Positions 1 to 16,215 of a stretch of 16,215 nt of DNA are shown in pieces. Made by a program: the position numbers and the translations under genes. Where the stretch lies: IMG/VR virus record IMGVR_UViG_3300032217_000984. One strand, written 5' to 3'. This DNA is from a virus. Every line of letters starts with the position of its first letter. Position 1 is the stretch's first letter. The notes below the pieces were generated by a model that did not search any database, was not told where the DNA came from, and was given only the letters and a program-made list of their open reading frames with translations.

Positions 1-32
1 CCCCCCCGGGGGGGGCCATTCCTGTTGGGCAC
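1..32. repeat. Left copy of a 32-bp direct terminal repeat (C7 G8 CCATTCCTGTTGGGCAC), an assembly-overlap or terminal-redundancy signature
   Basis: Bases 1-32 are identical to 16184-16215 by direct comparison. The repeat runs exactly from window start to window end. Confidence 0.95.
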
Positions 33-38
33 CGCGCT

Positions 39-1799
39 GTGGGTACCACGAAAACGAACGCGCGCCGTAAGCACCGGAAAGCGGTGCCTTTATGCGCACA
101 GCAGGCCGACGCCTACGCCCGGGAGGTGGTGGACGGGTCCATCGTGGCCAACGTGCGGGTGCGCGCAGCGTGCGCGCGCTACCTGCAACACCGGACGGAC
201 CCGGACGCGTGCGGCGTGTGGTGGGACGACGACGCCGCAGAGGCGGCCCGCGCCTTCGCGCTGAGGTGCGGCCAGGGCGCCGAAGCTGGGGCAGGGCAGC
301 CGCTGGTGTGGCTGCCGTTCCAGTGCATGATTGCCATGCTCATGGTGGCAATGCGGCGCGTGGTCGACGGCCGCCGCACCGACACGCCAGCCGTCAAGGT
401 GCTGCTGACGACGATGGCGCGCGGCAACGGCAAGACCGAGTTCGCTGCCAGCCTGATTGCGGCGGCCATGCGCGACCCCACTGGCCGGCTGGAGTTCGCC
501 AGCGTCGCGCCCGACGGCCGGCTGGCGCAGAAGACGTTCGAGCGCTTGGCGGTGATGACGCAGACGCTTGGCGGGGCGGAAGCCGAATGGACGGCCACCG
601 GCGGCAGCAGCCCGGCGCACCCCGGCAAGGTGCGGCACGGCGGCCACCGCTACACCAGCCTGCCGTGTACGGACAAAGCGCTGGACGGTCTGACGGTCCG
701 CCTGGTGGTGGCCGACGAAGTCGCGCGCATGGAACGGGCGTTCGGTCGCTTGCTCACAGGCTTGGCGAAGTTTGCCACTAGCCAAGCGCTGCTGATCACC
801 ACGCCCGATCCCGAGCAGCGAACGCGCCCCATTGCAGGGTATTTGGATGCCTGCGAACGCGCCTTGGACAGCGGCGAAGCCTTCCCGGCGGGGTGGTGGG
901 CGCTGCTTTACGGCTTGGACCGGGACGATCAGGCAGCAGACCCGTCCACCTGGCAGAAGGCGCACCCGGCGCTAGGCGTCCTGATCGACCGGACGCAGCT
1001 CGAATTGGCCGCCCGAACCATGCTGGAAAGCGGCGACCCGGCCCAAATTGCCGAGTTCGAAACGCAGTTGGCGTGCCGTTACCACGAAGTAGCGACAACC
1101 GATATCGACCTATCCGTCCTGGAAAGGCAGATGGTCGATACCGATTGGGGGCGGTTGAGAGGCGCGCCAGCCGTCATTGGGCTGGACCTGTCCAGGGGCG
1201 GCTACGGCGCGCAACTGGACTTTACTGCTCTTTGCATCATGGTGGTGGACGGTAATGTCATCCGGGCGCGGAACATCTGCTGGTGGGCAGGGATGGACAT
1301 GGCCCTGGACGAACGCCGGAGCAAGTGCCCTATTGGCGCATGGGTGGAGCAGGGCTACCTGCGCAAGATGCCGGGCGAATGGCACTGCATGGAAACCATT
1401 GCTGCAGCCATCGAAGACGCCATGCAGACCTACGACGTCCGCAAGATCGGGGTTGATCCGCACCCAGCGCAGGCGAAAGACATCCGCAAATGGCAGGACC
1501 GTGGCTGGCCGGTGATCCCCATCGACCAATCCATCCGCACGATGGCACCGGCATGGAACCTGTGGGGCACGCTGCTGAAGTCGAAGCAACTGTTCTACCA
1601 ACCCGATCCGGTGCTGCGTTCCGCCTTGAATTCCGTGCGGCTGATCCGCGACAACGTGGGGAACACGCGCCCGGTGAAGGGGCGCAGCGCAGGAAACACC
1701 GACGCGGTGGTGGCGGGGAACATGGCCGCCTTCCTGATGGAAAACCACCAGGTGCGCGAAGCTACCGGGCTAGTGCGTAGCAGGTGCCCAATTGGATAG
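39..1799 (+). CDS. terL: Terminase large subunit (HK97/Terminase_1-like)
   Basis: 586-aa ORF directly upstream of the portal gene. It has a Walker A-like MARGNGKT (nt 414-437) and a Walker B-like LVVADE (nt 702-719), and the N-terminal AYAREVVDG...AC.RYL layout is typical of this terminase family. GTG 39 is the first in-window start, but the frame is open to base 3 and, across the circular junction, back to ATG 16159. Confidence 0.9.
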   Translation: MGTTKTNARRKHRKAVPLCAQQADAYAREVVDGSIVANVRVRAACARYLQHRTDPDACGVWWDDDAAEAARAFALRCGQGAEAGAGQPLVWLPFQCMIAMLMVAMRRVVDGRRTDTPAVKVLLTTMARGNGKTEFAASLIAAAMRDPTGRLEFASVAPDGRLAQKTFERLAVMTQTLGGAEAEWTATGGSSPAHPGKVRHGGHRYTSLPCTDKALDGLTVRLVVADEVARMERAFGRLLTGLAKFATSQALLITTPDPEQRTRPIAGYLDACERALDSGEAFPAGWWALLYGLDRDDQAADPSTWQKAHPALGVLIDRTQLELAARTMLESGDPAQIAEFETQLACRYHEVATTDIDLSVLERQMVDTDWGRLRGAPAVIGLDLSRGGYGAQLDFTALCIMVVDGNVIRARNICWWAGMDMALDERRSKCPIGAWVEQGYLRKMPGEWHCMETIAAAIEDAMQTYDVRKIGVDPHPAQAKDIRKWQDRGWPVIPIDQSIRTMAPAWNLWGTLLKSKQLFYQPDPVLRSALNSVRLIRDNVGNTRPVKGRSAGNTDAVVAGNMAAFLMENHQVREATGLVRSRCPIG

Positions 1800-1845
1800 T
1801 GCAAGTACGAAATAAACGCTTGACGACGCGGGGCAGAATTGTTCC

Positions 1846-2997
1846 ATGCCGCGCGTGGGATTCCTCTCGCGCATTTTCGGCTACTCGAACGCCGTGGTGG
1901 TCTACAACACCCCACCCGCGTCGGCACCTGTTGCCATCACGCAGATCCCTGCGGTGGTGCGCGCTATCCAGCTGATTTCCGCCGACATTGCGCGCCTGCC
2001 GATCAACATCGAACGCGAAGACGGCACCCTGGTGGATTCCCCTGTGGCGTCGCTCCTGAACCGGGAAGCCAGCCGCTGGCAGTCTTCCTTTGAGTTCCGA
2101 CGATACCTCACGTCCTGCGCGCTGAATGACGGTAACGGCATCGCCGTCATCCGCCGCGACAACAACGGAATGGTGGTCGAACTGCAGCCCGTGCCCATCG
2201 GCTCCGTGGTGGCCGAGCTGACCGAAGAGGGCGTTCAGTACCGAATCAACAACGTGGTGCTGACGCAGGATCAGGTGCTGCACGTTGGTGCGTTCCCCGA
2301 CCCGATGAACCCGGCGTGGTTCGTGTCGCCGCTGGATGCGTCGGCGTTCGCCATGCGCCTGGCAGCGGACCAAGAGGCAGCACATCGCGCACTGGTTGCC
2401 ACGGGAAGTACGGGCAAGATTGCAATCCGACACCCGGGCGCGCTGGCCGACGAATCCGTCGAAGCCATCCGCAACGCCTGGCAGTCGATGCACGCCACCG
2501 CTGACGGTGCCAGCCGCCCGCTGATCCTGCGGGAAGGCATGACTGCGGAACGCATCAGCCAGGAAACCAGCACCAGCAGCATCGATTCCCGGCGTTTCAG
2601 CGTGCAGGAAATCGGGCGCGCGTTCGGCGTGCCGCCCGAAATGCTGTTCCAGCAGGGCGGCGGCGCGCTGTCCAGCCAGGCGGAAACGGCGCGCGCCTAC
2701 GCCGACGGCGCCATCAGCGCCTGGGCAACGGCATGGGAAGCAGAACTTACGCGCAAGTTGTGCGCGCCTGGCGAGTACGTGACCATTGACACGCGCCCCA
2801 TCACGCGCGGCAGCCTGAAGGATCAGGGCACGGCATGGAGCAAGTTGGTGTTGGCTGGCATCGCCAGCCCGAACGACGCGCGCCTGGCCATCGGCCTGCC
2901 GCCGCTGGTTGGTTACGACACGCCGACGGTGTCCATGCCTGGCGGCGCAGCCGCTGCCGCGTTTGCACCCGACACGGAGGGCACGGGCAATGATTGA
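1846..2997 (+). CDS. Portal protein (HK97-family)
   Basis: 383-aa ORF between terminase and protease. The N-terminal AVVRAIQLISADIARLP, NDGNGIAVI and C-terminal SVQEIGRAFGVPPEML segments resemble conserved HK97-type portal blocks. Confidence 0.88.
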   Translation: MPRVGFLSRIFGYSNAVVVYNTPPASAPVAITQIPAVVRAIQLISADIARLPINIEREDGTLVDSPVASLLNREASRWQSSFEFRRYLTSCALNDGNGIAVIRRDNNGMVVELQPVPIGSVVAELTEEGVQYRINNVVLTQDQVLHVGAFPDPMNPAWFVSPLDASAFAMRLAADQEAAHRALVATGSTGKIAIRHPGALADESVEAIRNAWQSMHATADGASRPLILREGMTAERISQETSTSSIDSRRFSVQEIGRAFGVPPEMLFQQGGGALSSQAETARAYADGAISAWATAWEAELTRKLCAPGEYVTIDTRPITRGSLKDQGTAWSKLVLAGIASPNDARLAIGLPPLVGYDTPTVSMPGGAAAAAFAPDTEGTGND

Positions 2998-3514
2998 AAT
3001 TCGCACCGGGACGCTGCGCGCAGACGCTGGCAAGTTGGGCGGCTATGCCGCCATCTACAACGCGCCGAGCAAGCCGCTGACCATCCGTGGCCTGAACGGC
3101 GGCAAACCGTTCGTGGAACGCATCGCGCCCGGTGCATTCGATGGCATCGAAGGGCGCAACGTGTCGCTGCTCATTGGGCACGACCGCAGCCAGCTGCTGG
3201 CGAACAGTGCCTCCGGCTTGCTGTCGCTCCGTTCCGATGGCACTGGCCTGGCCTACGAAGTGACCCTGCCGGACACCCAGCGCGCCCGCGACGTGCGCGC
3301 GTTGGTGGAAGCAGGCGTCATGACGGAGATGTCTTTCGGTTTCTACGTGAAGTCTGACGCCTGGAATGGATCGGAACGCACCCTGCATTCCGTCGATCTC
3401 CGGGAGATTTCGATTATCGAAGCGGACGGCGCTGCATATCCGCAGACGAGTGCCGAAGCGCGAAACACCAACGCCGGAATCAACCGGCTCAAACTGCGGC
3501 TAAGGAGCGTTTGA
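2990..3514 (+). CDS. Prohead maturation protease (HK97 / peptidase S78-like)
   Basis: The internal ATG at 2990 overlaps the portal stop by 8 nt. Motifs FVERIAPGAF, LLIGHD and SFGF...LREISII match the HK97 prohead protease pattern. Position between portal and capsid also fits. Confidence 0.85.
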   Translation: MIEIRTGTLRADAGKLGGYAAIYNAPSKPLTIRGLNGGKPFVERIAPGAFDGIEGRNVSLLIGHDRSQLLANSASGLLSLRSDGTGLAYEVTLPDTQRARDVRALVEAGVMTEMSFGFYVKSDAWNGSERTLHSVDLREISIIEADGAAYPQTSAEARNTNAGINRLKLRLRSV

Positions 3515-3515
3515 A

Positions 3516-4742
3516 ATGAAGATTTCCGAGATGCATGAGAAGCGCAAGGCGCTTACCGCCGAGCGGGACACGATTCTGACCGCGTCCGAAATGACTGTCG
3601 AGCAGGAAGCGCGCGGCCACGAAGTCGCCAACGAACTGCAGAAGCTCGATGGCGAGATCCGCGCCGCGCAGATGCGCGAGCGTTTCGCGTCCTACAGCGC
3701 GATGGAGAAGGCCGTCGAAGACGGCAACAAGCGCAACACCGATTGGACCGCAACGACCGAGTACCGCGACCAGTGGATCAACTGGTGCCGTGGTGGCCGT
3801 GCGCCGGAAACCCGCGCCATCGACACGTCGTCGTCCAGCGGCGTGCTGGTCCCGAAGATCTACGAAGCCGGGATCCTGAAGTACCTGGAGCGGAACACCG
3901 TGGTCCGCAACCTGGCCGACCTGCGTACGGGCGTCAAGGGCAGCGTGACCATGCGCGTCAACACCCTGGAAACCGACGCGGCTACGTCGTCGTTCTGGAC
4001 CACCGAGTCCAGCAAGACGGCGACGGCCATTGACGGCGCGTGGGCCGAAGTCAACATGAACCCCGTCGGCGGTCTGCCGAAGTCGGAACTGACGCAGTGG
4101 GTTGTGCGGCAGTCGGATTTCGACGTTGAAACCGAAGTCATGGACAATTTGCAGCGGCAGATTGCCCGTGGTTTGGAGTACGGCTACACCATCGGCACCG
4201 GCAGCGATCAGCCCACCGGCCTGTTCCTGCAGAACGCTAATTTCAAGGGCCTGAGCACCGCCTACAGCGCGGCGCACGCCAGCGGTGCAGGTTGGGATGC
4301 TGCATTCACCGTGGCGCGCCTCACCGAGCTGCGCTACAAGACGCTGCCCGCTGAGTACTGGTCGTCCGCTGCGTGGATCATGTCGCAGGACGCGTACTAC
4401 GCCATCGCGCAGCTGGTCTCTGCGTCCGGTTCCAATGTGCCGCTGTTCGTGCCGTCGTCCGACGCTGGCATCACCAATGCGGCGCCGTTCACGCTGATGG
4501 GACGGCCGGTGTACATCGCACCGTACGCCCCGGGCCGTCAGACGGCAGCCGTGTCGAACAGCATCCCGCTCATGTTCGCCAACGTGTCCGAAGCGTTCGC
4601 CATCCGCGAGTGGGGCGGTGTGAATATGTTCCGCGACGATGTGACCACCCCAGGACTGGTCAAGTTCCAGGGCATGGTGTTCACCAACAGCAAGGTGATC
4701 CGGCCGAAGGCCGTCGCCGCGCTGCGCATCACCCTCACCTGA
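3516..4742 (+). CDS. Major capsid protein (HK97 fold) with N-terminal coiled-coil delta-like region
   Basis: 408-aa ORF with an AAGGAG RBS at 3502-3507. It has a charged helical N-terminus (EKRKALTAERD...) followed by a capsid-like core, and lies immediately after the protease. Confidence 0.9.
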   Translation: MKISEMHEKRKALTAERDTILTASEMTVEQEARGHEVANELQKLDGEIRAAQMRERFASYSAMEKAVEDGNKRNTDWTATTEYRDQWINWCRGGRAPETRAIDTSSSSGVLVPKIYEAGILKYLERNTVVRNLADLRTGVKGSVTMRVNTLETDAATSSFWTTESSKTATAIDGAWAEVNMNPVGGLPKSELTQWVVRQSDFDVETEVMDNLQRQIARGLEYGYTIGTGSDQPTGLFLQNANFKGLSTAYSAAHASGAGWDAAFTVARLTELRYKTLPAEYWSSAAWIMSQDAYYAIAQLVSASGSNVPLFVPSSDAGITNAAPFTLMGRPVYIAPYAPGRQTAAVSNSIPLMFANVSEAFAIREWGGVNMFRDDVTTPGLVKFQGMVFTNSKVIRPKAVAALRITLT

Positions 4743-4760
4743 TAGATCCTTTCATCCGGC

Positions 4761-4790: not shown

Positions 4791-4805
4791 CGCTAGGGGA
4801 TCACA

Positions 4806-5285
4806 ATGCCCATCGACCAAACCAAGGTGCGGAACTGGTCCCGAAAGGGACATACCGAAGACGATACCGCGCTGGGCATCGCGTGGGAAGCCGCGAAGCG
4901 CGAGCTTGAGATGCGCACCGGCTGGTGCGTCGATCCCGTCACGCGCACGCAGTACGTCGCTGCGGAACCGAACAGCGACGAACTGCTGGTACGCCTGGAA
5001 CGCCAACCGGTGACGGCCGTGACGTATTCGGATGCCGATGGCACGGCGGGAACGGCAACCTTGGTCACTATCAACGGCATTCAGTACGCCACGATGTTGG
5101 ACGGGCTGTCATATCCGGTGGTGCTGACGGTGTCCGCTGGCACCAACACGCTAAACCCACTGCTCGAAATGGCCCTGCTGCAGCGCACGATTCAGCTGGA
5201 AGCAAGCCGTGGCGACGACACGATGACGCTGCCGGGCGACTACTGGGACCGCATTTGCCGAATGCTCGGCAAGGGCATCGGGTAA
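4806..5285 (+). CDS. Head-tail connector protein (gp6-like)
   Basis: 159-aa ORF, first after the capsid gene. The N-terminal pattern (VRNW.R....DD..L......AAKRELE..TGW) resembles gp6-like head-tail connector proteins. Confidence 0.68.
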   Translation: MPIDQTKVRNWSRKGHTEDDTALGIAWEAAKRELEMRTGWCVDPVTRTQYVAAEPNSDELLVRLERQPVTAVTYSDADGTAGTATLVTINGIQYATMLDGLSYPVVLTVSAGTNTLNPLLEMALLQRTIQLEASRGDDTMTLPGDYWDRICRMLGKGIG

Positions 5286-5288
5286 GCC

Positions 5289-5633
5289 GTGCCCGGACAC
5301 GTTCCAACCGGGATGCTCCGCATCCCCATGACGGTGCAGAACCCGGTGCGAACCGTGGACGCGTTCGGCCAGGCGAACGAAGCGTGGATCAGCATCGGCA
5401 CCGTGTGGTGCCACGTCGAAGTCGCCAACACGATGGAAGTGGTCGATGACATGGGTCCAGCGGTTCGCACCGATTGGCGGATGCTTGCTACCTGGCACCC
5501 GTCGATCACGACACGCAGCCGCTTGCAGTGGACCGACAGTGGCAGCACGCGGACGTTTAACGTGCGCGCCTGCTGGGACCGCGACCAGCGGCGCAGGCGG
5601 CTCGAAATCGAAGCAACGGAGGTGCTGCCGTGA
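5289..5633 (+). CDS. Head closure / head-tail joining protein (SPP1 gp16-like)
   Basis: 114-aa ORF with a GTG start 3 nt after the upstream stop. The pattern LRIPMTVQ...D.FGQ....W..IGTVWCHVE is typical of this family, and the synteny fits. Confidence 0.62.
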   Translation: MPGHVPTGMLRIPMTVQNPVRTVDAFGQANEAWISIGTVWCHVEVANTMEVVDDMGPAVRTDWRMLATWHPSITTRSRLQWTDSGSTRTFNVRACWDRDQRRRRLEIEATEVLP

Positions 5634-6112
5634 TTAAGTTCACCGCTGATTCTTCCTCTGCCCAGGCTGTCCTGAATGGCCTTCCCCGTGCGCTGTCGGA
5701 GTCGATACGGAAAAAGGCCATTCGGGCAGCCCTGCAGCCGTATGTGAAGACCCTACGGCAGAAATGGCAAGCGTCGTCATACCGTGGCAAGGCACCGCAC
5801 CGCAAGGCAATTGCAGCTGCCACGCAGTTGTCTTCCCCCAAGCGCATTGGAAACGGTGATACGGCCACGATCCGCGCGGAGCTGGGCGTTCAGTACGGGC
5901 GCAAAGGCGGTGCAAAGGCCCGCGGACGCCAACGCGTGTACCACTTGCTCGAGCAGGGATTCAGGCACGTTGCATCCGGCAAGTCGGTTCCTGGTGCAAA
6001 CCGCAGTCTGGCATGGTCGCACGCGAATGTGGCGCGCGCCATGCAGGACGTAGCGGACCAAATCATCATCCAGGCACGCAAAGCGTTGGGGGATAAGAAT
6101 GTCCGTAACTAA
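5630..6112 (+). CDS. HK97 gp10-like tail completion / neck protein
   Basis: 160-aa ORF with a GTGA overlap on the upstream gene. It has the gp10-like layout (N-terminal L..LP.AL segment, later HLLEQGFRH resembling the vEfGt block). Assigned partly by position. Confidence 0.5.
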   Translation: MIKFTADSSSAQAVLNGLPRALSESIRKKAIRAALQPYVKTLRQKWQASSYRGKAPHRKAIAAATQLSSPKRIGNGDTATIRAELGVQYGRKGGAKARGRQRVYHLLEQGFRHVASGKSVPGANRSLAWSHANVARAMQDVADQIIIQARKALGDKNVRN

Positions 6113-6503
6113 CATCCATAAGGCGATATTTGACGTGTTGGACGGCACAGGGAACCCAGTCTGCAGCGGTTTGCGCACCGCCGCGACGCCCACCCCGTGC
6201 TACGTCTACGAAGTCACCAGCATGGAAATGGCCGTGCAGATGCGCGGCGCGGGTGCGCTGAACCACTGGACCGTCGGCGTCGAAGTGAACTGCGTTGCCG
6301 ATACGGTGGCTGACGTCTGCACGCTGATTGACGACGTAATCGCGGAACTGGACAACGGCCCGCTAAACTACACGGCATTTAAATGCAGCATCGCGCTGGC
6401 ATCGTTCGCCATCGCGTTTAGCACCGCTACGCCCGACGACGGGCAGCAGGACGCCGAACGCGTCGGCACCATCACATTGACCCTACTGGTCCAGGAGGAC
6501 TAA
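6099..6503 (+). CDS. Tail terminator-like protein (possible DUF3168-type), assigned by position
   Basis: 134-aa ORF overlapping the upstream gene by 14 nt, lying immediately before the tail tube gene. Confidence 0.4.
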   Translation: MSVTNIHKAIFDVLDGTGNPVCSGLRTAATPTPCYVYEVTSMEMAVQMRGAGALNHWTVGVEVNCVADTVADVCTLIDDVIAELDNGPLNYTAFKCSIALASFAIAFSTATPDDGQQDAERVGTITLTLLVQED

Positions 6504-6505: not shown

Positions 6506-6889
6506 ATGGCACTTATCACAGGCTACGGTGGCACGGTTTCGTTCAGCGGGCAGTCTTCCACGAAGGCGAAGTCGATCACCATCAACATGGAACGCGACTC
6601 TTTGGACATTACTGCGCTTGGAGATTTCATTACCAAGCGCGCCCCAGGCCGCGTCCGTCGTTCTGGAACTTTGTCGCTCTATCGCGATTCGTCAACGGAT
6701 ACCGCGTTGAAGTCGCACATGTTCCCGACGACGTTGGTTCTTGCTACTGGCGCAACGCTGACGTTGTCCTACACCGATCAGGGAGGAGTCGCGTATTCAT
6801 CAATGAATGTGCAAATCACTAGCGCGTCGATTTCCGATGATGGCACCGGTGCAGCAATGTGGGAGCTCACCTGGGAGGAGCAGGGTTGA
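6506..6889 (+). CDS. Major tail (tube) protein, small type
   Basis: 127-aa, beta-rich sequence in the position between terminator and chaperone. Its size resembles short tube proteins of GTA-like or small siphoviral tails. Confidence 0.55.
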   Translation: MALITGYGGTVSFSGQSSTKAKSITINMERDSLDITALGDFITKRAPGRVRRSGTLSLYRDSSTDTALKSHMFPTTLVLATGATLTLSYTDQGGVAYSSMNVQITSASISDDGTGAAMWELTWEEQG

Positions 6890-8948: not shown

Positions 8949-9469
8949 CATACATGGACCCAATATTTAGCCAGGGATTGATGGGTAAGGCCAACAGCCA
9001 CGTTTGCAATGCCTGGACAAACGCTGCTCGGTTTGCGCAGAGCAGTGCTGAAGCTGTTGATTGGGCGCAGCAGCAGGCAAGACGTCCGCTGGTGATGGCG
9101 CGCGCACTTTGTCAGATTACCAATGCAAGCGTCATTCCAGGAAAGGTGAACCAGTGGAATTACACCATCAGCCTCTGGCACGTTCCTCCTCCGTCAGGAA
9201 CCGGCGGATACTTCCCACCTGCCGATACGTGGTTCACCACAACGAAGTGCAAGAACCTGCGCGAGTACTGGAACGACATAACAAACGTGGACGGCATGAG
9301 CTTGAGCTCGCCACCTGCGTCAATTGGACCGGTCGGAAGCTTTTGGACTGGGACACATTGGACTACGTCAGAGCTTCGTGCTCATGCTGAAGTTTCCATT
9401 GTCTACGACACTTCCGGAGAAGCCTACTTTTACTTCGATCGTCCAAACCCCATGAGGTGTACCGAGTAA
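8945..9469 (+). CDS. Tail-tip protein, no recognised family
   Basis: 174-aa ORF with an ATGA overlap on the upstream gene. Trp/Thr-rich. Function is assigned by position only. Confidence 0.4.
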   Translation: MTYMDPIFSQGLMGKANSHVCNAWTNAARFAQSSAEAVDWAQQQARRPLVMARALCQITNASVIPGKVNQWNYTISLWHVPPPSGTGGYFPPADTWFTTTKCKNLREYWNDITNVDGMSLSSPPASIGPVGSFWTGTHWTTSELRAHAEVSIVYDTSGEAYFYFDRPNPMRCTE

Positions 9470-9515
9470 TGCCGAACCTTCAGCTTGCTACCTACATTGG
9501 AACGGAGGTGCTCCA

Positions 9516-10865
9516 GTGATCCAAAACATGATGCGCAAAGCGATGTTTGGTGAACCGTCGCTCAACGGCCCCAAACTGTACGGCAGCACTCGGGCATCCA
9601 CGTTTGTCAAGGACCTTGCTTCCGGCGCTGACAGCCTGGACGTCGTATTCATCGGCGATAGTAACACCATGTCGGCGGTCGCCGGTTCTTGGGGCTACCA
9701 CAACGGAATAAGCGCAGCAATGAACGCCAGGGGATGGGCTTGCTATGGAACGGCTGTCTACCCAACAATGACAGGATGGACGCCCGCCGGTGGTGCGTAT
9801 TCGCTCGGCGGATGGCAGAGCAATTGTTACCTGATGCAACCAACCGGCAACCTTGCCAGCGGAAACGCGTCGGGTGGAGGTACGGCATACCAAACGTGGA
9901 CGCCTGGATCAAATTGGACGCGATACGGATCGTACACAGCGTCCCCGCCAGCAAAGGATGATTGGGCTTACATCGCTTCCGGAACGTACTCGGACAACTA
10001 CAACGCGGTCGAACTGTTTGCAGCGCATCCGCTCAACTCCAATTCGCTCACGCTGCACCACCGAATCATCTACGGCACGTTCACCTTTGGTACTGGATCG
10101 TTTCGGGGCCGCACCCGTGCGTACAACGACGGTACGGTGTACGCAACCGGGGCTTCGCAATCGACGCTTGGCGGTTCGTACTCCGTCAATGCGTACGAAT
10201 ACTCGTTCACGCCGCAGGGCGTGTATCTGAATTCCTCATGGAGCGGACCGACAGCTACTGGACCGTGCGCCATCCTGTCTCACAGCATCTACTGCAAGCG
10301 CAAGGGGTGGTCTGTCACCAGCCACGGCTACATTACTGGCGGCGACAGCACCACGATTGCCAGCGTGATTACGGGGATTGGGAATACCCCTTTGCAGAAT
10401 CAACTGCAAGAGCTACGCGCCAGGCAGATTTCCGCGGGGGGAACGGGGCGAGTGTTGATCGTGGCACACTCCGGAATCAACGGTGCGGACACATCGACCA
10501 CCTGGACGACTGCCCATCAGAACATTTGGGACACCTACAAGGCTGCATGGTCTGCGCTCGGATTTCCTGCCAATGATCTTGCAATGGTTTCGTTTGTTGG
10601 TGTTCAGAGGAACTCCGCGGACACAAGCAACAATTCGGCAAGCCTTGCTGCTGTTCGTGACGGAGCGAAGACGTTTGGATTGCAGGCAAATGGGCTCACC
10701 GTTGCCCACATGCCGTCGATCATCACGTACTCCGAGCTGATCGGTCCACCGTATCTCTATCAGACGGGAACTACTGGCGACGCCCATCTGTCGGGCGGTT
10801 CCGGCAGCACGACCGACGGCTACCGGGAAGTGTCCGACCGTCTACTTACGGCGTTGCTGGCATGA
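9516..10865 (+). CDS. GDSL/SGNH-type esterase-like protein (candidate receptor-modifying tail fibre, or alternatively a lytic enzyme)
   Basis: GTG start 7 nt after GGAGG (9504-9508). Block I-like VVFIGDSNT (GDS at nt 9654-9662), block III-like VAHSGINGAD and a C-terminal GDAHL. The D-x-H spacing is not the canonical DxxH. Confidence 0.5.
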   Translation: MIQNMMRKAMFGEPSLNGPKLYGSTRASTFVKDLASGADSLDVVFIGDSNTMSAVAGSWGYHNGISAAMNARGWACYGTAVYPTMTGWTPAGGAYSLGGWQSNCYLMQPTGNLASGNASGGGTAYQTWTPGSNWTRYGSYTASPPAKDDWAYIASGTYSDNYNAVELFAAHPLNSNSLTLHHRIIYGTFTFGTGSFRGRTRAYNDGTVYATGASQSTLGGSYSVNAYEYSFTPQGVYLNSSWSGPTATGPCAILSHSIYCKRKGWSVTSHGYITGGDSTTIASVITGIGNTPLQNQLQELRARQISAGGTGRVLIVAHSGINGADTSTTWTTAHQNIWDTYKAAWSALGFPANDLAMVSFVGVQRNSADTSNNSASLAAVRDGAKTFGLQANGLTVAHMPSIITYSELIGPPYLYQTGTTGDAHLSGGSGSTTDGYREVSDRLLTALLA

Positions 10866-11167
10866 AGCTTGCTGCGGCCATCATCGCGCTGTCGCTCGCC
10901 GGTTGCACCAACCACACCGCGGCTATTGCCCATTCGGCCATTGACGCCCGCCAGGCGTTGGGGTCCGCCATCGTCCACGTAGACGCCGCGCGCCGCGACC
11001 TGGACACGCTGCAGGCGTCCGTGGACGAAGTATCAATGCACGTTGCTTTTGTTTCGGACGACGAGAACCAGATTTATGCCACGCTGCAGTACGTTTCCGT
11101 GGCGGCAATTGTCATCGGCGGCGCAGCCGCCCTATACACCATTCGGAATTGGATACCAATCCCATGA
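10862..11167 (+). CDS. Lipoprotein with C-terminal transmembrane helix (u-spanin-like topology; alternatively Llp/Cor-like exclusion lipoprotein)
   Basis: Signal peptide plus lipobox MKLAAAIIALSLAG|C. Helical middle region. C-terminal hydrophobic LQYVSVAAIVIGGAAALYTI followed by RNWIPIP. ATGA overlaps at both ends. Confidence 0.6.
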   Translation: MKLAAAIIALSLAGCTNHTAAIAHSAIDARQALGSAIVHVDAARRDLDTLQASVDEVSMHVAFVSDDENQIYATLQYVSVAAIVIGGAAALYTIRNWIPIP

Positions 11168-11298
11168 ACCTGGCACCATGGCAATACACGATATGGATGG
11201 CGTCCCTGCTGCTCGTCACCTTCGCGTCGGGGTGCAGCATCGGGTTGACGGCAGGCCGTAAGCAGAAAGTGAAGGCATCGAATGCTCGCAAGCGCTGA
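11164..11298 (+). CDS. 44-aa single-pass membrane (or small lipo-) protein, not in the supplied ORF track
   Basis: Hand translation gives MNLAPWQYTIWMASLLLVTFASGCSIGLTAGRKQKVKASNARKR*. Its ATG overlaps the upstream stop (ATGA). It has a hydrophobic core, then a basic tail, and ASGC is a weak lipobox. Confidence 0.45.
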   Translation: MNLAPWQYTIWMASLLLVTFASGCSIGLTAGRKQKVKASNARKR

Positions 11299-11395
11299 AA
11301 GTCTCCTGGGCAGTCTCGCATTCGCGGCTGCGATGGCCCTGTCCGGCCTGATCGCCGGATACCTGGTCTGCCGGCGGAGCAAGGAAACGAAGTGA
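11282..11395 (+). CDS. 37-aa single-pass membrane protein, not in the supplied ORF track
   Basis: Hand translation gives MLASAESLLGSLAFAAAMALSGLIAGYLVCRRSKETK*. It overlaps the upstream micro-ORF by 17 nt, and its stop overlaps the GTG of the next gene (GTGA). One TM helix plus a basic tail. Confidence 0.4.
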   Translation: MLASAESLLGSLAFAAAMALSGLIAGYLVCRRSKETK

Positions 11396-12219
11396 GCAGA
11401 AAACGCTGCTGCTGCGGAGGATCTCCACCACCGGCTTATCCGTGCCAGCCGTGCCCGTCTGGCGAAGGGCACGAATGGATCGTGCAAGTCATCACTGATG
11501 GCATCATTGGTGACAGCGCAGGCTATGGCGTTGTAAATGACATCGACTATTACCAATCATGTCTGGCCGGTGACTGCGGTCGCCGGATGTTTGTCAGGCG
11601 TGGCGGATCAAATACGGATCTATCGTTTTGCGATGAAGTGTGCGATTCCATCGTGGATAGTCCTGGTGCATCTGACGCTGGTGACCACACGATCAGATGG
11701 TCATTCTGTAGCGTGGTAAACCCTACGGACTTACCAGGTAGTCCGTACCTACCAGACATCCTCAACGACCAGGAGGGAGCCGTGACAATTGAAGCTGTGC
11801 TTCCAAACCGGCAGTGGGATTTCACCAATTGTGTACCTTTTGGTGGCGGCATCCCTGGAGAGGATTGCGCGACCATTATCAAAGTGTCTTTTACGTATTC
11901 CGATACGTTCACTTATCCGCAATGGGATGACGTAGGCGACGGTTGTTTCAGCACGACTCGCACCATCACCATGCCGACGCAAGTTTGGACTTGTTGGTAC
12001 GCACGCCGCGTCGCAGCTGGGCAGTTTTTTGCAGAGGGCACGTACTACCTGCTGCGTTGCGAATATCCAGCCGCGTACGACACAGTGGGCGGAAACCCGC
12101 CGTTCTACAAGTGCCGGATCGGCAACGGCGTGGTTTGTTCGTCCCAGCACGGCGTTTCAATATCACCACCGACCATATGGAAACCACCCGCCAACATCAA
12201 CCTGGTGCGCCTCTCCTGA
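11392..12219 (+). CDS. Cysteine-rich protein of unknown function (17 Cys in 275 aa; N-terminal RKRCCCGG)
   Basis: Long ORF coupled to the upstream membrane micro-ORFs. I recognise no family. Paired Cys spacings are CQPC, C..DC and C...C. Confidence 0.55.
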   Translation: MSRKRCCCGGSPPPAYPCQPCPSGEGHEWIVQVITDGIIGDSAGYGVVNDIDYYQSCLAGDCGRRMFVRRGGSNTDLSFCDEVCDSIVDSPGASDAGDHTIRWSFCSVVNPTDLPGSPYLPDILNDQEGAVTIEAVLPNRQWDFTNCVPFGGGIPGEDCATIIKVSFTYSDTFTYPQWDDVGDGCFSTTRTITMPTQVWTCWYARRVAAGQFFAEGTYYLLRCEYPAAYDTVGGNPPFYKCRIGNGVVCSSQHGVSISPPTIWKPPANINLVRLS

Positions 12220-12254
12220 CCCGCCTCCGCTACCGGTGGAAGGGCGAAGAGCAG

Positions 12255-12458
12255 ATGCGGTGCTTTCACATCGTGGAAGGCGAACCCGTGGCTGCCGATT
12301 GTCCGCCAAAGTTCACCGGCCTGGGCGACGTGATCGCCGACGGCACAAAGGCGCTCGGGGTACACCCGTGCGGCAAGTGCAAGAAACGCCAGGCGTGGCT
12401 GAACCGCTGGACGCCCGCCTGGCTGGCAGGTCTGATATCGCGGATTCGTTCCCGTTGA
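12255..12458 (+). CDS. 67-aa CxxC mini-protein with amphipathic/hydrophobic C-terminus
   Basis: Internal ATG 12255 of the 11943..12458 frame, preceded by GGAAGGGCGAAGAG. Sequence MRCFHIVEGEP...GLGDVIADGTKALGVHPCGKCKKRQAWLNRW. The upstream part of that frame overlaps the Cys-rich gene and looks non-coding. Confidence 0.45.
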   Translation: MRCFHIVEGEPVAADCPPKFTGLGDVIADGTKALGVHPCGKCKKRQAWLNRWTPAWLAGLISRIRSR

Positions 12459-12459
12459 A

Positions 12460-12858
12460 TTGTGGTGGATTGTGGTGCAGATTGACTACAATCCTGGAAT
12501 GAATCCAAGCATCCGGACGGCTATGGAAAGACGCGACGCCACCAGGGGCGAATGGTGGCTGGCGCGCATGGATACAGACCCGCCAGGCCAATGGACGCTG
12601 ACGGCAGACCCGGCTGGCCCGTGGGATTGGCGTTTCAAGGTGGGGTCTTGCAAGTCGCGCGCGGTGCAACGCCTGCGCGCAGCTGCAGATAGGGAAGCGA
12701 ATAACAGGCGCAGGTTACTGGCCACGCCTGAACACGCAAAAAAGTGTGTTACGGGGCAGGGAAATCTACTTGCAATTCCGGGACTGACCGATACTATCTC
12801 CGCCAAGCGCGGATTGCACCAGTTTGCGGTGGATGCTGATAACGTTGTCCCTGTTTAA
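12460..12858 (+). CDS. Hypothetical protein (start uncertain: TTG 12460, GTG 12472/12475 or ATG 12499)
   Basis: 132-aa ORF, Trp/Arg-rich. Last gene before the AT-richer intergenic gap. No family recognised. Confidence 0.4.
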   Translation: MWWIVVQIDYNPGMNPSIRTAMERRDATRGEWWLARMDTDPPGQWTLTADPAGPWDWRFKVGSCKSRAVQRLRAAADREANNRRRLLATPEHAKKCVTGQGNLLAIPGLTDTISAKRGLHQFAVDADNVVPV

Positions 12859-12932
12859 CAGATTGCAATTTATCATAACACGCATCCCACCACTTTAGCG
12901 AACCTTTCCGCGCTCCAGCCATTGGAGCGAAG
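12859..12932 (+). promoter_or_regulatory. Largest intergenic gap; candidate early promoter/operator region
   Basis: It is the AT-richest stretch of the window. It contains the ATTGCAAT palindrome (12862-12869), a TATCAT -10-like hexamer (12871-12876) with no well-spaced -35, and a GCTCCA-GCCAT-TGGAGC hairpin (12912-12928) covering the GGAG RBS of the RHH gene. Confidence 0.3.
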
Positions 12933-13148
12933 ATGAACGGACACGATGAAAGGAAGACGCGGAAGCGCCGACGGGCCGCAGTTCTTGCGGCAGAACCAGC
13001 GAAGCAGATCAGGATTGGGGAATCGGTCTATCAGTCGCTGATTGCCGAAGCGGTGGTTGCCAAGCGCAGCGTGCGTGGCCAGGCTGAATACCTGATCACG
13101 ATGGGCATCCAGCGCGCGCTAGAACTGGAAACGCGGGGTGCCGCGTGA
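12933..13148 (+). CDS. Ribbon-helix-helix (Arc/MetJ/CopG-like) DNA-binding protein
   Basis: 71 aa with a basic N-terminal arm (RKTRKRRR), then IRIGESVYQSLIAEAVVAKRSVRGQAEYLITMGI, which fits a strand-helix-helix pattern. First gene of the replication block. Confidence 0.55.
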   Translation: MNGHDERKTRKRRRAAVLAAEPAKQIRIGESVYQSLIAEAVVAKRSVRGQAEYLITMGIQRALELETRGAA

Positions 13149-13918
13149 GTGCCATCCAGTTGCACAGCCCGATGGAACTGCACACCCGCAACCAGCAGGC
13201 AATCACTGCCGTGCGGGAGGTGGTGCAGACCCACTACATGAACCGCATCCAGGGGCGCGCCTACCTCATGGTGGCAGGGGCGCAGGCTATTGCCACCGCC
13301 CTGGGCTACACGACGGGCATCGAATCGGTGCGGCATATTCCGGCCACCGATGACCTGCCGGGCTACTGGGAAGCCACCGCCACCGTCATGCAGTCGGGGC
13401 AGGTGGTCGGGCGTGGCGTCGCAGCTGTGTTCGACGACGAACGCCCGTGGAACACCCGCCCACACTTCGCACGCCAGGCGATGGCGCAGACCCGCGCAAC
13501 CGGCCGAGCGTTGAAGGGCGTCATGGGCTGGGCGTGCGCCATGATCGGCGCAGAAACGTCACTGGCTGAGGAGATGCCGCAGGAAGGCGCTACGGTGCCC
13601 CAGGATGGCACGGAAGGCGTCAAGCGCATTCCGGCCCGTCCGGCTGCTCTGAAAGTGTCTAAAGGCAATGCTGGGGCGACACGCGAGATTCGCGGAATTT
13701 GTGCGGGAGTCAAGGAACTGACCAGCAAGGCCGGGAAGCCGTACTGGCGAATTGCCTTGGAGGGGGAACCCGGCAAGCCGGACCCCGAGTGGACTTCCTT
13801 TAAGCCGGTGCCGGACATGGCTGGCCGCATGGTCAAGGTGGTGCTGGAATCGAAGGTCAACGCGAAAGGGGAGTCTGGCGACATTGCCCTGGACGTGATT
13901 GATTTGGAGGTTGACTGA
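13145..13918 (+). CDS. Possible single-strand annealing / recombination protein (RecT/ERF-like motif) with C-terminal OB-like domain
   Basis: The FARQAMAQTRATGRALKGV segment resembles the conserved helix of phage annealases (compare the RecT AMAKKTAIRRLFK-type motif). A nuclease gene follows. This is a weak, motif-level call. Confidence 0.3.
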   Translation: MSAIQLHSPMELHTRNQQAITAVREVVQTHYMNRIQGRAYLMVAGAQAIATALGYTTGIESVRHIPATDDLPGYWEATATVMQSGQVVGRGVAAVFDDERPWNTRPHFARQAMAQTRATGRALKGVMGWACAMIGAETSLAEEMPQEGATVPQDGTEGVKRIPARPAALKVSKGNAGATREIRGICAGVKELTSKAGKPYWRIALEGEPGKPDPEWTSFKPVPDMAGRMVKVVLESKVNAKGESGDIALDVIDLEVD

Positions 13919-14496
13919 TGCGGTGGACGCCTGAATACGTGCTAGACGGCGCGGATCAGGTGTATTGCCGCACCACGGCGACGAATCGCCACGCGGTGCG
14001 TCGGGCTTCCTACTTGGCTGATCGCGGAGTGACGCGTCAGTGGAAGACGGAAGGCGAGCAGCTGCGCGTTGATTTCGTCGGCGTCGGCGGTGAATTGTGC
14101 GTCCGAAAGTGCTTGGAAATGCCACAGCAGTGGGATGACCGGGAAACCGAAGGGCGACACGACCTGATCTACCAGGGCCACCGCATCGACGTGAAGACAA
14201 CCACCAATTCCGATCCTTGGCTGATCGTGCGGAAGACGGCGTTGCACGTGGACGCCTATGTGCTGGTGAATTACTGCGATGGACGGTTTAGGGTCTGCGG
14301 TTGGCAGACTGAAAGAATGGTCAAAAGTGAAGAGAACACCTGGAAGTGGGAACACGCCTACACCCTCAAAGAGCAGGCGCTTCGATGCATCACAGAATTG
14401 CGAGAGTGGGCAGGGGCGGATCCACCCAGGGCAGATATTTGCCCTGGGGGCTGCCTTGACGCCTACCGAAAGGTACGTGGCGATTGCGCTGGCTGA
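13918..14496 (+). CDS. PD-(D/E)xK superfamily nuclease
   Basis: GVGGELCV ... HDLIY ... IDVKT gives the E / D / (D/E)xK arrangement of restriction-endonuclease-fold nucleases. TGATG overlap with the upstream gene. Confidence 0.5.
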   Translation: MRWTPEYVLDGADQVYCRTTATNRHAVRRASYLADRGVTRQWKTEGEQLRVDFVGVGGELCVRKCLEMPQQWDDRETEGRHDLIYQGHRIDVKTTTNSDPWLIVRKTALHVDAYVLVNYCDGRFRVCGWQTERMVKSEENTWKWEHAYTLKEQALRCITELREWAGADPPRADICPGGCLDAYRKVRGDCAG

Positions 14497-15064
14497 CTAT
14501 GGGCAGCGAATCCACCCGAGCTTGGCGCACCTTTGCGCAAAGACGGGGCTGCACCGCAACACACTCAGCCGTGCAATTTGCTCCATGAGGGCGAAAGGCA
14601 TAATCAGGACTTACGGCACCGGCAAGGCGCTAACGTACACCCTTGATATGCACTTTAAAGGTGACGGTACCGTCACCTTAAAGGGTACGCACCATCACCT
14701 TAAAGGTGACGCACCGTCACCTTTAAAGGTACGGGATCCTAACTACCAAAGAACTACTAAAGAACCACCCGCGGCTGACGCCGCAAATGGGGGGCGGGAA
14801 GGGTTCGATGAATTGGTCCAAAGGATCCGAGTCCGTGACCCGAGAGCCGACATTGACGCGCAGCGCCGCGTGTGTTCGCGGGTGATGGAGCAGCATGGAC
14901 TTGCCAAGGAAGACATTCCGCCAGCGTGGCGGCTGTTGTGCCTGAACTGGGCGCGCACTGGCAACGCGCCGTACGACACTTTGCAACGCATCGTGACCAG
15001 CCTGGAGGGCGCGCGCGACGTTCGTGCCGTCGTCCTGCACAAGATCAAGGGGGTGGCAGCATGA
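14456..15064 (+). CDS. Replication initiator, lambda-O-like (N-terminal winged-HTH, iteron-containing linker, C-terminal domain)
   Basis: LTPTERYVAIALADYG....PSLAHLCAKTGLHRNTLSRAICSMRAKGII is HTH-like. The start is uncertain: TTG 14456 after GGGGG, or GTG 14477 after GAAAGG. ATG 14279 would overlap the nuclease gene by 218 nt and encodes an R/S/G-rich junk-like peptide. Confidence 0.55.
   Translation: MTPTERYVAIALADYGQRIHPSLAHLCAKTGLHRNTLSRAICSMRAKGIIRTYGTGKALTYTLDMHFKGDGTVTLKGTHHHLKGDAPSPLKVRDPNYQRTTKEPPAADAANGGREGFDELVQRIRVRDPRADIDAQRRVCSRVMEQHGLAKEDIPPAWRLLCLNWARTGNAPYDTLQRIVTSLEGARDVRAVVLHKIKGVAA
14651..14732. repeat. Candidate origin of replication: four dyad-symmetric iterons (consensus about TCACCTT(T)AAAGGTGAC) spaced 22-23 bp apart
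   Basis: Copies lie at 14651-14665, 14672-14688, 14694-14710 and 14716-14732. A perfect 18-bp palindrome GGTGACGGTACCGTCACC lies at 14660-14677. All are inside the initiator ORF. Confidence 0.7.
14741..14765. repeat. Tandem 11-mer AACTAC(C/T)AAAG x2.3, AT-richer; candidate DNA-unwinding element next to the iterons
   Basis: AACTACCAAAG (14741-14751), AACTACTAAAG (14752-14762), then AAC. It begins 9 bp after the last iteron. Confidence 0.45.
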
Positions 15065-15357
15065 CCGAGATACCGAATGACATGTGTGGACCTTGGGAGC
15101 GCAAGCTCAAGCGCGCCCAGCGCAGCATTTCGACCGGGTCAATTCCCGTGGACGTGGTCGAAGATCTGATTGCAATGATTGTATTTCAGCATGAGGATCT
15201 GCGCGAGCAAGACCGCAAGTGGCGCGAGCGCGAGCGGTTCCTGGAGCGGCAAATCGTGATGTGCGGCGGCGGGTTCGATAAGCGCGGCCTTGAGGGCGAA
15301 CGCGCAGGAGTCATCGTGAAACACGGCATCCATGAAGTGATTGAGGATGCACCATGA
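15061..15357 (+). CDS. Hypothetical protein, 98 aa (charged/coiled segment EDLREQDRKWRERERFLERQ)
   Basis: Internal ATG 15061 overlaps the initiator stop (ATGA). The upstream part of the 14872 frame overlaps the initiator gene. Confidence 0.5.
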   Translation: MTEIPNDMCGPWERKLKRAQRSISTGSIPVDVVEDLIAMIVFQHEDLREQDRKWRERERFLERQIVMCGGGFDKRGLEGERAGVIVKHGIHEVIEDAP

Positions 15358-15884
15358 ACGACGATGTGAGTGGCGTCGGCGTTGGTCCCGGTGCGCGTCG
15401 CACCGGGGCCTACAGCCGCCGCAAGGGAAAGAACGGCGAGCTTGAAGCCTGCGTTGTCATGGAGGCCGTGCTGGGCTTCCCCTGGCGCCGCACCGCTCAA
15501 CGGCGTGGCGATGGCACCGCCGACATTGAACCCGTGGACGGCGGGCGCATTGCCATCCACGTCGAAGTGAAGCGATACCAGGGGGGGTTGAAGTGGTGGA
15601 CCAACCGGCTGGCGGGATCGGATCGCGTGCACCTGGTCGATGCAAGTGGGTTGCTCATTGCCCGAGTCGAAGCAATTCGTAACGCCATGTTGCAAGACGG
15701 CGACCTTGCAACTGCGCCAAGGCAGGGTTGCGCCGAGAAATGGATGAAGCAAGCCGTTCGGGATGCGGAAGACGGATTGATCCCGGTGGTGCTGTGTCGC
15801 CAGGACAGGGGGCCGTGGATCCTGGCATGGCGATACGCGGACGACGATGCCCTAATGGCCATTCTGCGGAGGGCAATGGCGTGA
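15354..15884 (+). CDS. Hjc-like PD-(D/E)xK nuclease (candidate Holliday-junction resolvase)
   Basis: RKGKNGELEACVVMEAVLGFPWRRT...GDGTADIEP...IAIHVEVKR matches the kG..gE....L..G....R...G....D....-EvK pattern of Hjc-type resolvases. ATGA overlap upstream. Confidence 0.5.
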   Translation: MNDDVSGVGVGPGARRTGAYSRRKGKNGELEACVVMEAVLGFPWRRTAQRRGDGTADIEPVDGGRIAIHVEVKRYQGGLKWWTNRLAGSDRVHLVDASGLLIARVEAIRNAMLQDGDLATAPRQGCAEKWMKQAVRDAEDGLIPVVLCRQDRGPWILAWRYADDDALMAILRRAMA

Positions 15885-16159
15885 AGCGCCTCCGATTCAA
15901 CGGAGGCCTAGGAGAGGCGGCTAAGGCCGTTGCTGTGCCACGCAGTAGAGGCGGCACATGGACCAGGCTGGCCAAGTTGCACAAGGCGTGTCATCCCCAG
16001 TGCGTCGATTGCGGCAGCATCGTCGGCATTGAGACCGATCACGTAATACCGTTGCACCTTGGCGGCACCAACGCGTGGGGCAACCTTGCCAGTAGGTGCC
16101 ATGAGTGCCACTCGCGCAAGTCTGCAATCGAACAGCAGAAGAGGCAAGGGCTTACGTAA
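15881..16159 (+). CDS. HNH endonuclease (terminase-associated position)
   Basis: GTG 15881 overlaps the upstream stop (GTGA). Motifs CVDCG...ETDHVIPLHLGGTNAWGNLASRCHECHSRK supply the zinc-ligand pairs and the H-N-H residues. It is the last gene before the terminase, as in HK97-like cos phages. Confidence 0.8.
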   Translation: MKRLRFNGGLGEAAKAVAVPRSRGGTWTRLAKLHKACHPQCVDCGSIVGIETDHVIPLHLGGTNAWGNLASRCHECHSRKSAIEQQKRQGLT

Positions 16160-16173
16160 TGCCACGAAAGCAG

Positions 16174-16198
16174 CCCCCCCCCGCCCCCCCGGGGGGGG
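16174..16198. other. C9-G-C7-G8 homopolymer block at the genome junction; C7G7 is self-complementary. Candidate packaging/cos-related element, or part of the TerL N-terminal coding sequence.
   Basis: Read directly. The C7G8 part is duplicated at 1-15. Confidence 0.5.
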
Positions 16199-16215
16199 CC
16201 ATTCCTGTTGGGCAC
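16184..16215. repeat. Right copy of the 32-bp direct terminal repeat
   Basis: Identical to bases 1-32. Confidence 0.95.

Follow-up and report, generated by a model that had tools for sequence, protein, structure and literature searches.

A 16,183-bp cos-type genome of a probable autonomous, siphovirus-like freshwater phage

Cultured siphoviruses of small genome size include Rhodococcus phage RRH1 (14,270 bp) and the Arthrobacter phages of cluster AN (~15.5 kb) (PMC5513430), as well as the Corynebacterium phages of cluster ER, among them CyranoPS, which have genomes of 14.8-15.5 kb and 14-nucleotide (nt) 3' cos overhangs (preprint 10.64898/2026.10.29.762952). For fresh water, a pronounced ~15-kb peak has been reported together with 155 'miniphages' of less than 15 kb, the smallest of which has 13.5 kb (Kavagutti et al., 2019, Microbiome 7:135; PMC6802176). 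Here we describe the IMG/VR virus record IMGVR_UViG_3300032217_000984, a stretch of 16,215 nt that was analyzed at its full length and is referred to as the window. We read it as the complete genome of an autonomous small cos-type, siphovirus-like freshwater phage of the HK97 lineage, and assign to this reading a probability of roughly 0.8. An initial annotation of the same DNA had presented a siphovirus-type genome of this size as rare, which was overstated in view of the cultured siphoviruses of 14.3-15.5 kb and the published freshwater peak at ~15 kb (PMC6802176). The description as a complete 16-kb tailed phage is true, but phages of this kind were already known. The present analysis adds a proof of completeness, the cos ends, a start of the large terminase gene (TerL) that spans cos, the modular anatomy of the genome, an account of missing or unrecognised functions, and the size limits of the family.

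The window genome shares with the small actinophages (RRH1, AN, and ER) its size class, a mostly forward-strand structural operon, and cos ends of similar length, and the protease-capsid fusion of cluster AN is also found in one sister clade of the window genome (the L027 clade, described below). However, no sequence relationship between these actinophages and the window genome was detectable, and CyranoPS has a small terminase, an endolysin, and lysogeny genes, which were not found in the window genome. The major capsid protein (MCP) and TerL are at most 27% identical to those of cultured phages, with matches to varied phages, and megablast with the complete window found zero matches in 50,697 phage records. 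The freshwater miniphages are likewise small, circularly assembled, and of freshwater origin, and the paper gives their size class without anatomy (PMC6802176); at 16,183 bp the window genome lies outside the miniphage class of <15 kb and belongs to the reported ~15-kb peak. Two further systems are of interest for their gene content. RcGTA, the gene transfer agent (GTA) of Rhodobacter capsulatus, and roseophage R4C give matches to the MCP, to the tube fold and, for RcGTA, to the portal, and have in common with the window a compact head-to-tail module with a very short tape-measure-like gene; RcGTA differs in that the window element has its own origin, its own initiator, and cos packaging of its own DNA, and the likeness is remote and unspecific. 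The capsid-forming phage-inducible chromosomal island (cf-PICI) Pmp8 (OR544139.1) has an HNH endonuclease, TerL, a portal, an S78 protease, an HK97 MCP, connectors, and a length of ~15 kb in common with the window. In contrast, genes for an integrase, a primase, a repressor, and an excisionase are typical of cf-PICIs, which have no tube, tape-measure, or tail-tip genes, and the window genome shows the reverse pattern. The Pmp8 record (L035, Pasteurella phage Pmp8) of 15.3 kb was submitted as the genome of a complete phage although its layout is that of a cf-PICI. It contains HNH, the small terminase TerS, TerL, a portal, a protease, an MCP, and connectors, together with a primase, a repressor, an excisionase, and the remnant of an integrase, and it is devoid of tube, tape-measure, and tail-tip genes.

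The first 32 positions of the window (1-32, +) are an exact copy of 16184-16215, which gives a unit of 16,183 bp with 61% GC. Whether this overlap is a chimeric artefact was tested on other assemblies, and three of them read across the junction. An IMG/VR contig of 87-95% identity (L010) runs from window positions 15051-16215 directly into 3-3722, a circularly permuted ENA scaffold of 16,238 bp (L020; the unit of 16,183 plus 55) is 100% identical to the window, and a contig of 393 nt from a different sample (X2) bridges 16184 to 2. The junction is real, and the exact repeat together with the junction-spanning contigs bears out the initial claim of a complete genome with a unit of 16,183 bp and an exact 32-bp overlap.

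Linear contigs place the physical ends of the DNA close to this junction. Four contigs (L004, L005, L007, and L009) begin at window position 46 (CCACGAAAACG), and the full 15,888-bp contig of L009 (G002), a relative with a CheckV completeness of 98%, ends at the equivalent of window position 32 (...GGGCAC). A virome contig (X7) from a 2015 viral-fraction metagenome ends precisely at 16215 (= 32). In a Logan contig (L019) from the run that contains the window genome (ERR2848489; 99.99% identity), an Illumina adapter tail, ...CGCTCTTCCGATCT, is joined to base 46. The 13 nt between these ends (33-45, +; CGCGCTGTGGGTA) are confined to the junction-spanning contigs (the window, L010, and L020) and are missing between the ends of the linear contigs. 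The same end architecture recurs in a distant clade, which has 66% GC and head genes of 68% nucleotide identity: the right end is ...TTGGGCCAC (end of L022), the 13-nt gap is CGCACGGTTGGGA, and the left end, at which L023 and L026 start, is CCTCGAAAACC. Two contigs from metagenome-assembled genomes (MAGs), L029 and L030, also begin at the left-end motif. Altogether, nine contigs begin at the left-end motif (L004, L005, L007, L009, L019, L023, L026, L029, and L030) and three stop at the right-end motif (G002, L022, and the X7 virome contig). Ahead of the conserved left-end motif, L022 carries 48 nt of unrelated sequence (L022:1-48), which may be a ligation or assembly artefact at a physical end.

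From these termini we infer that the packaged DNA is linear and double-stranded, with 16,183 nt and 13-nt cohesive ends at 33-45. The overhangs are probably 3', because the 13 nt are lost at both ends, as in end-repair trimming of 3' overhangs. The 32-bp 'direct terminal repeat' is an assembly overlap across the cos junction, and its last base, base 32, is the presumed right physical end. Thus, the terminal overlap was correctly taken as genuine and as the sign of a complete genome, but the virion DNA would be linear with cos ends and not circular or terminally redundant. Close to the inferred cut lies a C9-G-C7-G8 tract with a GC palindrome (16174-16198, +), which we regard from its sequence as a candidate recognition element for the terminase or the HNH endonuclease. 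The tract forms a perfect GC hairpin that ends 17 nt upstream of the inferred cut, positions 1-15 being its repeat copy, and inverted repeats of C-runs and G-runs are found at the same place in two distant clades (L021 and L027).

The genes on both sides of cos encode candidate packaging enzymes. The HNH endonuclease gene (15881-16159, +) lies directly upstream of cos and TerL, and its product matches PF14279 (1e-9), PF01844 (1.5e-8), and phrog_589 (5e-15). TerL (39-1799, +), which matches PF20441 at 1e-16 and phrog_9 at 2e-62, has 586 amino acids (aa) when read from GTG 39. On joined DNA its frame extends upstream as far as ATG 16159, which gives 607 aa, and this ATG and the HNH stop codon overlap as TAATG; L010 has a TerL of the same length, and the gene call on L020 gives the same form. 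All three nucleotide differences in 46-83 are synonymous. Since a start codon is lacking from base 46 up to the conserved basic motif of TerL, initiation lies at GTG 39, within the overhang, or further upstream. The frame thus indicates that the full TerL gene exists on joined DNA only and that its initiation region spans cos. A cos-spanning TerL start is also seen in the L027 clade and in L030. It is clade-specific, because the L021 clade and L029 start TerL at an ATG just past the left end.

The relatives of the window genome form a lineage of free phages that is widespread and size-bounded near 16 kb. Relatives of its tube protein fall into 90 clusters (at 90% identity) with identities of 48-100%, and the maximum lengths of their contigs are 15.7-16.9 kb; the sole longer contig, of 18.5 kb, has TerL at both ends and is an over-assembled circle. 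In IMG/VR there are 242 related contigs, and the best 80 of the 242 top out at 15.6-18.3 kb. A species-representative genome collection holds relatives on MAG contigs of at most 15.7 kb only. Among ~1,100 sampled genomes of three classes, no close MCP was found beyond those MAG contigs, other MCP matches being remote, and no integrated copy or host-flanked contig of any relative was found in the genomes and contigs searched. The sequences come from lake, river, freshwater, and viral metagenomes of 13 studies. Sister clades keep the structural module and have swapped replication genes (ERF plus a DUF5906 protein). In one of them, represented by L027 and L028, the initiator module is replaced by ERF and a DUF5906 protein of 428-440 aa, and the S78 protease and the capsid protein are fused in one 568-aa open reading frame (ORF) (L027:3162-4868 and L028:3245-4951).

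The hallmarks of an HK97-lineage tailed phage with HNH-assisted cos packaging are present in the window, namely, an HK97-fold MCP, a portal, a protease, TerL, an HNH gene beside the terminase, and defined cohesive ends. In the life cycle that we propose, the ends would join after injection, which would explain why some assemblies read across the junction, and HNH and TerL, whose genes flank cos, would cleave concatemers there. A short non-contractile tail would be built from the 127-aa tube protein, with its length set by the tape-measure-like protein of ~234 aa, and at its tip would sit an exchangeable receptor-binding or esterase protein. The genome would be replicated from iterons within the gene for a winged helix-turn-helix (wHTH) initiator, with the helicase, primase, and polymerase of the host. 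The lifestyle is most likely lytic, because no integrase or partition genes were found. Several points weigh against the proposal of an autonomous siphovirus-like phage. About half of the ORFs have no family at all, and family scans of all ORFs (Pfam, PHROGs, and NCBIfam) recognised neither a small terminase nor an endolysin; a divergent small terminase might nevertheless be present among those small ORFs that have no assignment. Gene order is the basis on which the tape measure, distal tail, terminator, and tail-completion proteins are assigned, and tail length and morphology are predicted from genes. Finally, the physical ends are placed by contig termini and one adapter fusion, that is, by contig data and not by read pile-ups.

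Three other explanations were weighed. The element could be a temperate phage kept as an episome, like a phage-plasmid, with plasmid-type maintenance through the iterons, the initiator, and a ribbon-helix-helix (RHH) regulator. An origin of iterons plus initiator is indeed plasmid-like, a ParD/Arc-like RHH gene heads the early block, an integrase is lacking, and relatives have been binned into MAGs. We nevertheless consider an episome unlikely, since the family scans of the ORFs found no ParA/ParB, protelomerase, toxin partner, or CI-type repressor, since a conflict of MAG bins at the phylum level is typical of mis-binned free phage contigs, and since a relative is present in a viral-fraction metagenome. 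The element could also be a phage satellite of the cf-PICI kind, with a small capsid of its own and HNH/TerL/cos packaging, that would depend on a helper phage for virion or lysis functions. The block of HNH, TerL, portal, protease, MCP, and connector genes resembles that of cf-PICIs such as the 15.3-kb Pmp8 (preprint 10.1101/2022.09.08.507074), the size would suit a satellite-sized capsid, and neither a small terminase nor an endolysin was recognised. Against this, the window encodes a tail-tube protein and a full-length block of tail-position genes with a swappable tip protein, and the lysis position is taken by membrane proteins of its own. It also lacks the integrase, primase, repressor, and excisionase, all of which Pmp8 has, and no chromosomal copy was found in the genomes searched. 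A satellite is therefore quite improbable.

The third explanation, raised in part in the initial annotation, takes the window for a GTA-like element, a defective derivative of a prophage, or a piece of a larger prophage, with the terminal overlap as an assembly artefact. RcGTA is among the best solved-structure matches of both MCP and portal, and its gene cluster presumably has a similar gene order and a similarly short tape-measure-like gene. However, RcGTA is only remotely similar (E 1e-9), and many phages are at least as similar; independent assemblies bear out the junction, and other clades share the defined ends. An origin, an initiator, and recombination genes are encoded by the element itself, and packaging of random host DNA in the manner of a GTA is countered by the defined ends and by the relative in the viral-fraction metagenome. 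No contig extends beyond ~18 kb and none has host flanks, which speaks against a fragment of a larger prophage; since no chromosomal copy was found in the genomes searched, since the ends are defined cos ends, and since the element brings an origin and an initiator of its own, a GTA-like nature is disfavoured and has only a very slight chance of being correct.

For the proposed autonomous phage, four hints point toward a Gram-negative host. The best matches of the portal among cultured phages are Brucella and Burkholderia phages, relatives of the tail-tip protein of the sister clades are confined to phages of Gram-negative hosts, a protein with a lipobox plus a transmembrane (TM) segment is encoded, and the best solved matches of the MCP are RcGTA and R4C. 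Two of six MAG bins are actinobacterial, which is a counterpoint; an actinobacterial host is probably not the case, although this is unproven. The MAG bins themselves (Hyphomicrobiaceae, Pseudomonadota, Gammaproteobacteria, Actinomycetota, Rhodoglobus, and Bradymonadia) disagree at the phylum level, and the attempt to assign a host from them failed. A wider proposal, which we put forward tentatively as a possibility and hold to be doubtful, is that the window represents a globally distributed lineage of family rank, made up of minimal autonomous siphoviruses that infect Gram-negative, probably proteobacterial, bacteria of fresh water. Such phages would have a compact GTA-like head-tail module, a tail of ~30-35 nm, no separate small terminase or recognisable endolysin, and a TerL gene that is reconstituted when the ends join. 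If true, the lineage would mark how small a self-sufficient long-tail-type phage of diderm hosts can be, and it would provide a free-living comparator for the origin of GTAs. If the Gram-negative hints hold, small siphoviruses would reach beyond Actinobacteria, and the family would be suited to asking for the minimum size of a self-sufficient tailed virus and to finding new lysis and packaging proteins. The window genome provides a fully delimited reference, ends included, for a widespread uncultured family of freshwater phages of ~16 kb. It also indicates what a near-minimal tailed phage retains (head, tube, tip, an initiator with an origin, and recombination genes) and what is missing or unrecognisable in it (small terminase, endolysin, helicase, primase, and polymerase).

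The gene map was made from a frame plot of GC content at third codon positions (GC3), the ORF listing, gene calls on identical contigs, and our own map, and coding was checked by analysis of the substitution phase against relatives of ~85% identity. It contains 28 ORFs, all on the + strand, which cover ~98% of the 16,183-bp unit; 18 of 27 ORF junctions overlap or are spaced by at most 3 nt, in agreement with the initial count of about 30 genes on a single strand. Once the start of the initiator gene is corrected, only five gaps exceed 20 nt. In the ambiguous stretch at 10.9-12.5 kb, substitutions are biased to third positions in the + frames of the 101-aa, 275-aa, and 93-aa ORFs. No gene on the - strand was backed by the substitution-phase analysis, and two - strand ORFs (11074-11556 and 12313-12669) were rejected on the basis of family scans and substitution phase. 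ARAGORN proposed an 88-nt tRNA-Gly(GCC) at 573-660 (-) inside TerL; it is probably false, as Rfam has no tRNA there, and the Rfam scan of the window gave nothing that reached the gathering threshold. A scan for sigma-70 promoters and terminators gave fewer sites than in shuffled sequence, and no transcription units could be drawn.

The head genes follow TerL in the order portal, protease, and MCP. The portal gene (1846-2997, +) matches PF04860 at 5e-61, and among solved structures its matches include the RcGTA portal at 2e-11. The prohead serine protease (S78; 2990-3514, +) matches PF04586 at 3e-30, with its start taken from the gene calls on L019 and L020. The HK97-type MCP (3516-4742, +) matches PF05065 at 1.5e-34, and its closest solved relative is the RcGTA capsid protein at 1e-9, followed by R4C. 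Downstream are an ORF weakly assigned as a head-tail adaptor (4806-5285, +) by phrog_442 at 2e-4, by TIGR02215 at 0.01 (under the cut-off), and by position, and a head closure or head completion gene (5289-5633, +) that matches PF05521 at 1e-11 and phrog_25. The head is expected to be a small HK97-type head of ~50 nm with a presumed triangulation number of T=4 (PMC7762592); T=4 capsids are predicted to have genomes of ~18 kb on average (Luque et al.).

The tail region is best defined by its tube protein. The ORF of 127 aa at 6506-6889 (+) encodes the tail tube (major tail) protein, as indicated by family transfer and predicted fold: 15 of 31 aligned family members match PF18906 (Phage_tube_2), and an AlphaFold2 (AF2) model (pLDDT 81) gave the tube proteins of a monocin, RcGTA, R4C, lambda (gpV), and SPP1 as top Foldseek matches (E 2e-5 to 3e-4). 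At the level of sequence, PDB searches with profiles of the tube, 257-aa, and 305-aa proteins and with the 134-aa, 160-aa, and 449-aa proteins themselves were empty or gave chance-level matches, and neither the tube protein nor the 449-aa protein had a tblastn match among cultured phages. No ORF has a family match to a tail sheath, and there is no sheath-sized ORF between the neck and tape-measure positions; a tube gene without a sheath fits the siphovirus type. The long-tail-type virus that had been proposed is thus supported by the tube gene and the lack of a sheath, but of the full tail set only the tube protein is demonstrated. Likewise, of the full gene set claimed initially, the head and neck genes (Pfam and PHROGs) and the tail tube are confirmed, and the other tail genes are placed by position.

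These other tail genes surround the tube gene. Upstream, an ORF of 160 aa (5630-6112, +) and one of 134 aa (6099-6503, +) occupy the tail-completion and tail-terminator positions, respectively, and neither they nor their sister-clade orthologs match a family or solved structure. Downstream, two small ORFs at the tail-chaperone position, a G-like one (6886-7167, +) and a T-like one (7191-7334, +), the peptide of which is conserved in three clades, precede the tape-measure position. A -1 frameshift from the G-like into the T-like ORF was considered and is unsupported; the T frame can be read from 7116 onward, but a canonical slippery heptamer is lacking. The tape-measure-like protein of 234 aa (7327-8031, +), placed by position, has zero family matches. 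It contains 21% Ala and 12% Gly, its ends are conserved and its middle is variable (orthologs of 218, 185, and 184 aa), and it fits a very short tape measure. The next protein, of 305 aa (8031-8948, +), is by position a distal-tail (Dit or hub)-like protein. In its AF2 model (pLDDT 78) only the N-terminal domain (1-108) reaches Z ~5 against the tube-like domains of VgrG, Dit, and hub proteins, Foldseek against the PDB gave no clear match, and in BFVD it has unnamed relatives (entries of 'uncultured Caudovirales phage', which may stem from the survey of freshwater miniphages) with weak hints of Dit. A tail-tip-region protein of 174 aa (8945-9469, +), also placed by position, is conserved in sister clades (172 and 183 aa) and has zero family matches.

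The last tail gene (9516-10865, +) encodes a distal tail protein of 449 aa with a putative SGNH/GDSL-esterase-like domain. An SGNH lead came from Atlas, with a score of 0.95 to a cluster that is 84% PF13472, and the protein has GDS and GxND-like motifs. The gene behaves as a swappable receptor-binding module, as judged by comparison of genomes, because the nucleotide alignment of close relatives breaks exactly over it (9510-10860); moreover, contigs from other samples cover 9739-10820 almost nowhere. In sister clades the tail-tip slot is occupied by a protein of 390-425 aa that matches phrog_5939 ('tail protein') at 5e-74.

The replication and recombination block begins after the sole AT-richer gap of the genome (12859-12932, 74 nt), a candidate early promoter or operator region that precedes the RHH ORF. 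This ORF (12933-13148, +) encodes a putative ParD/Arc-like RHH regulator of 71 aa that matches PF11903 at 0.0017, under the cut-off, and the weak match recurs in its orthologs. The wHTH protein (14456-15064, +; ~195-202 aa) is replication-initiator-like, with matches to HTH_36 at 7e-5 and weakly to phrog_270 and phrog_678 (replication initiator O-like). Phase analysis moved its start from 14585 to TTG 14456 or GTG 14477, which removed an apparent gap of 88 nt. Inside this gene lies the putative origin (14651-14762, +; repeat families D1, D2, and D7 and inverted pairs I1-I6), which consists of four palindromic iterons with a spacing of ~22 bp (14651-14734) and a tandem 11-mer (14741-14762). By analogy with the lambda O gene and its ori, we infer that this iteron region serves as the replication origin.

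Around the initiator are further genes of presumed replication or recombination function. A RusA-like/PDDEXK_15 endonuclease (15354-15884, +), which resembles Holliday-junction resolvases, matches PF24608 at 2e-8 and phrog_244 at 1e-12, and it is separated from the initiator gene by an ORF of 98 aa (15061-15357, +) that overlaps its neighbours in ATGA and has no family match. Upstream of the initiator, a protein of 257 aa (13145-13918, +; phrog_19042) is a candidate for single-stranded DNA (ssDNA) binding or annealing. Its relatives number 2,884, and it matches no family in Pfam or the PDB. An acidic tip resembling that of single-stranded DNA-binding proteins, [DE][DE]xPF, ends ~20 of 35 sampled relatives, and the window copy ends in ...DLEVD, without PF; from these sequences the family may consist of unrecognised ssDNA-binding or annealing proteins. 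Its identification as ERF was rejected, though the same slot carries ERF in the L027 clade. The adjoining protein of 192 aa (13918-14496, +; phrog_18407) is a possible PD-(D/E)XK nuclease with a D...IDVK motif, and the two neighbours may form an exonuclease/annealase pair. Thus, of the replication gene set that had been proposed, the initiator-like wHTH protein with its iterons, the RusA/PDDEXK-like resolvase, and HNH are recognisable, and two more proteins have no family. Integrase, helicase, primase, polymerase, and partition families were detected in none of the ORFs (Pfam, PHROGs, and NCBIfam), in line with the initial statement that integrase and the first three replication enzymes named here are lacking.

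Between the tail and early genes lie two groups of small ORFs. The second of them (11392-12858, +) comprises ORFs of 275, 93, and 132 aa without family; phase analysis supports coding for the first two. The 275-aa protein is conserved and Cys-rich, with 17 cysteines, and the 132-aa ORF (12460-12858) has a near-uniform substitution phase and is weakly constrained and weakly supported. The first group, at the lysis position (10862-11395, +), is a block of membrane proteins of 101, 44, and 37 aa that was recognised by hydropathy and lipobox analysis. Substitutions in the 101-aa ORF are heavily third-position (24/3/3, 30/4/3, and 33/5/4). Its product has a lipobox (LAG|C) and a C-terminal TM segment, a u-spanin-like topology, and the 44-aa and 37-aa products are holin-like peptides with a single TM segment each, so that the block would have lysis roles of the spanin and holin types.

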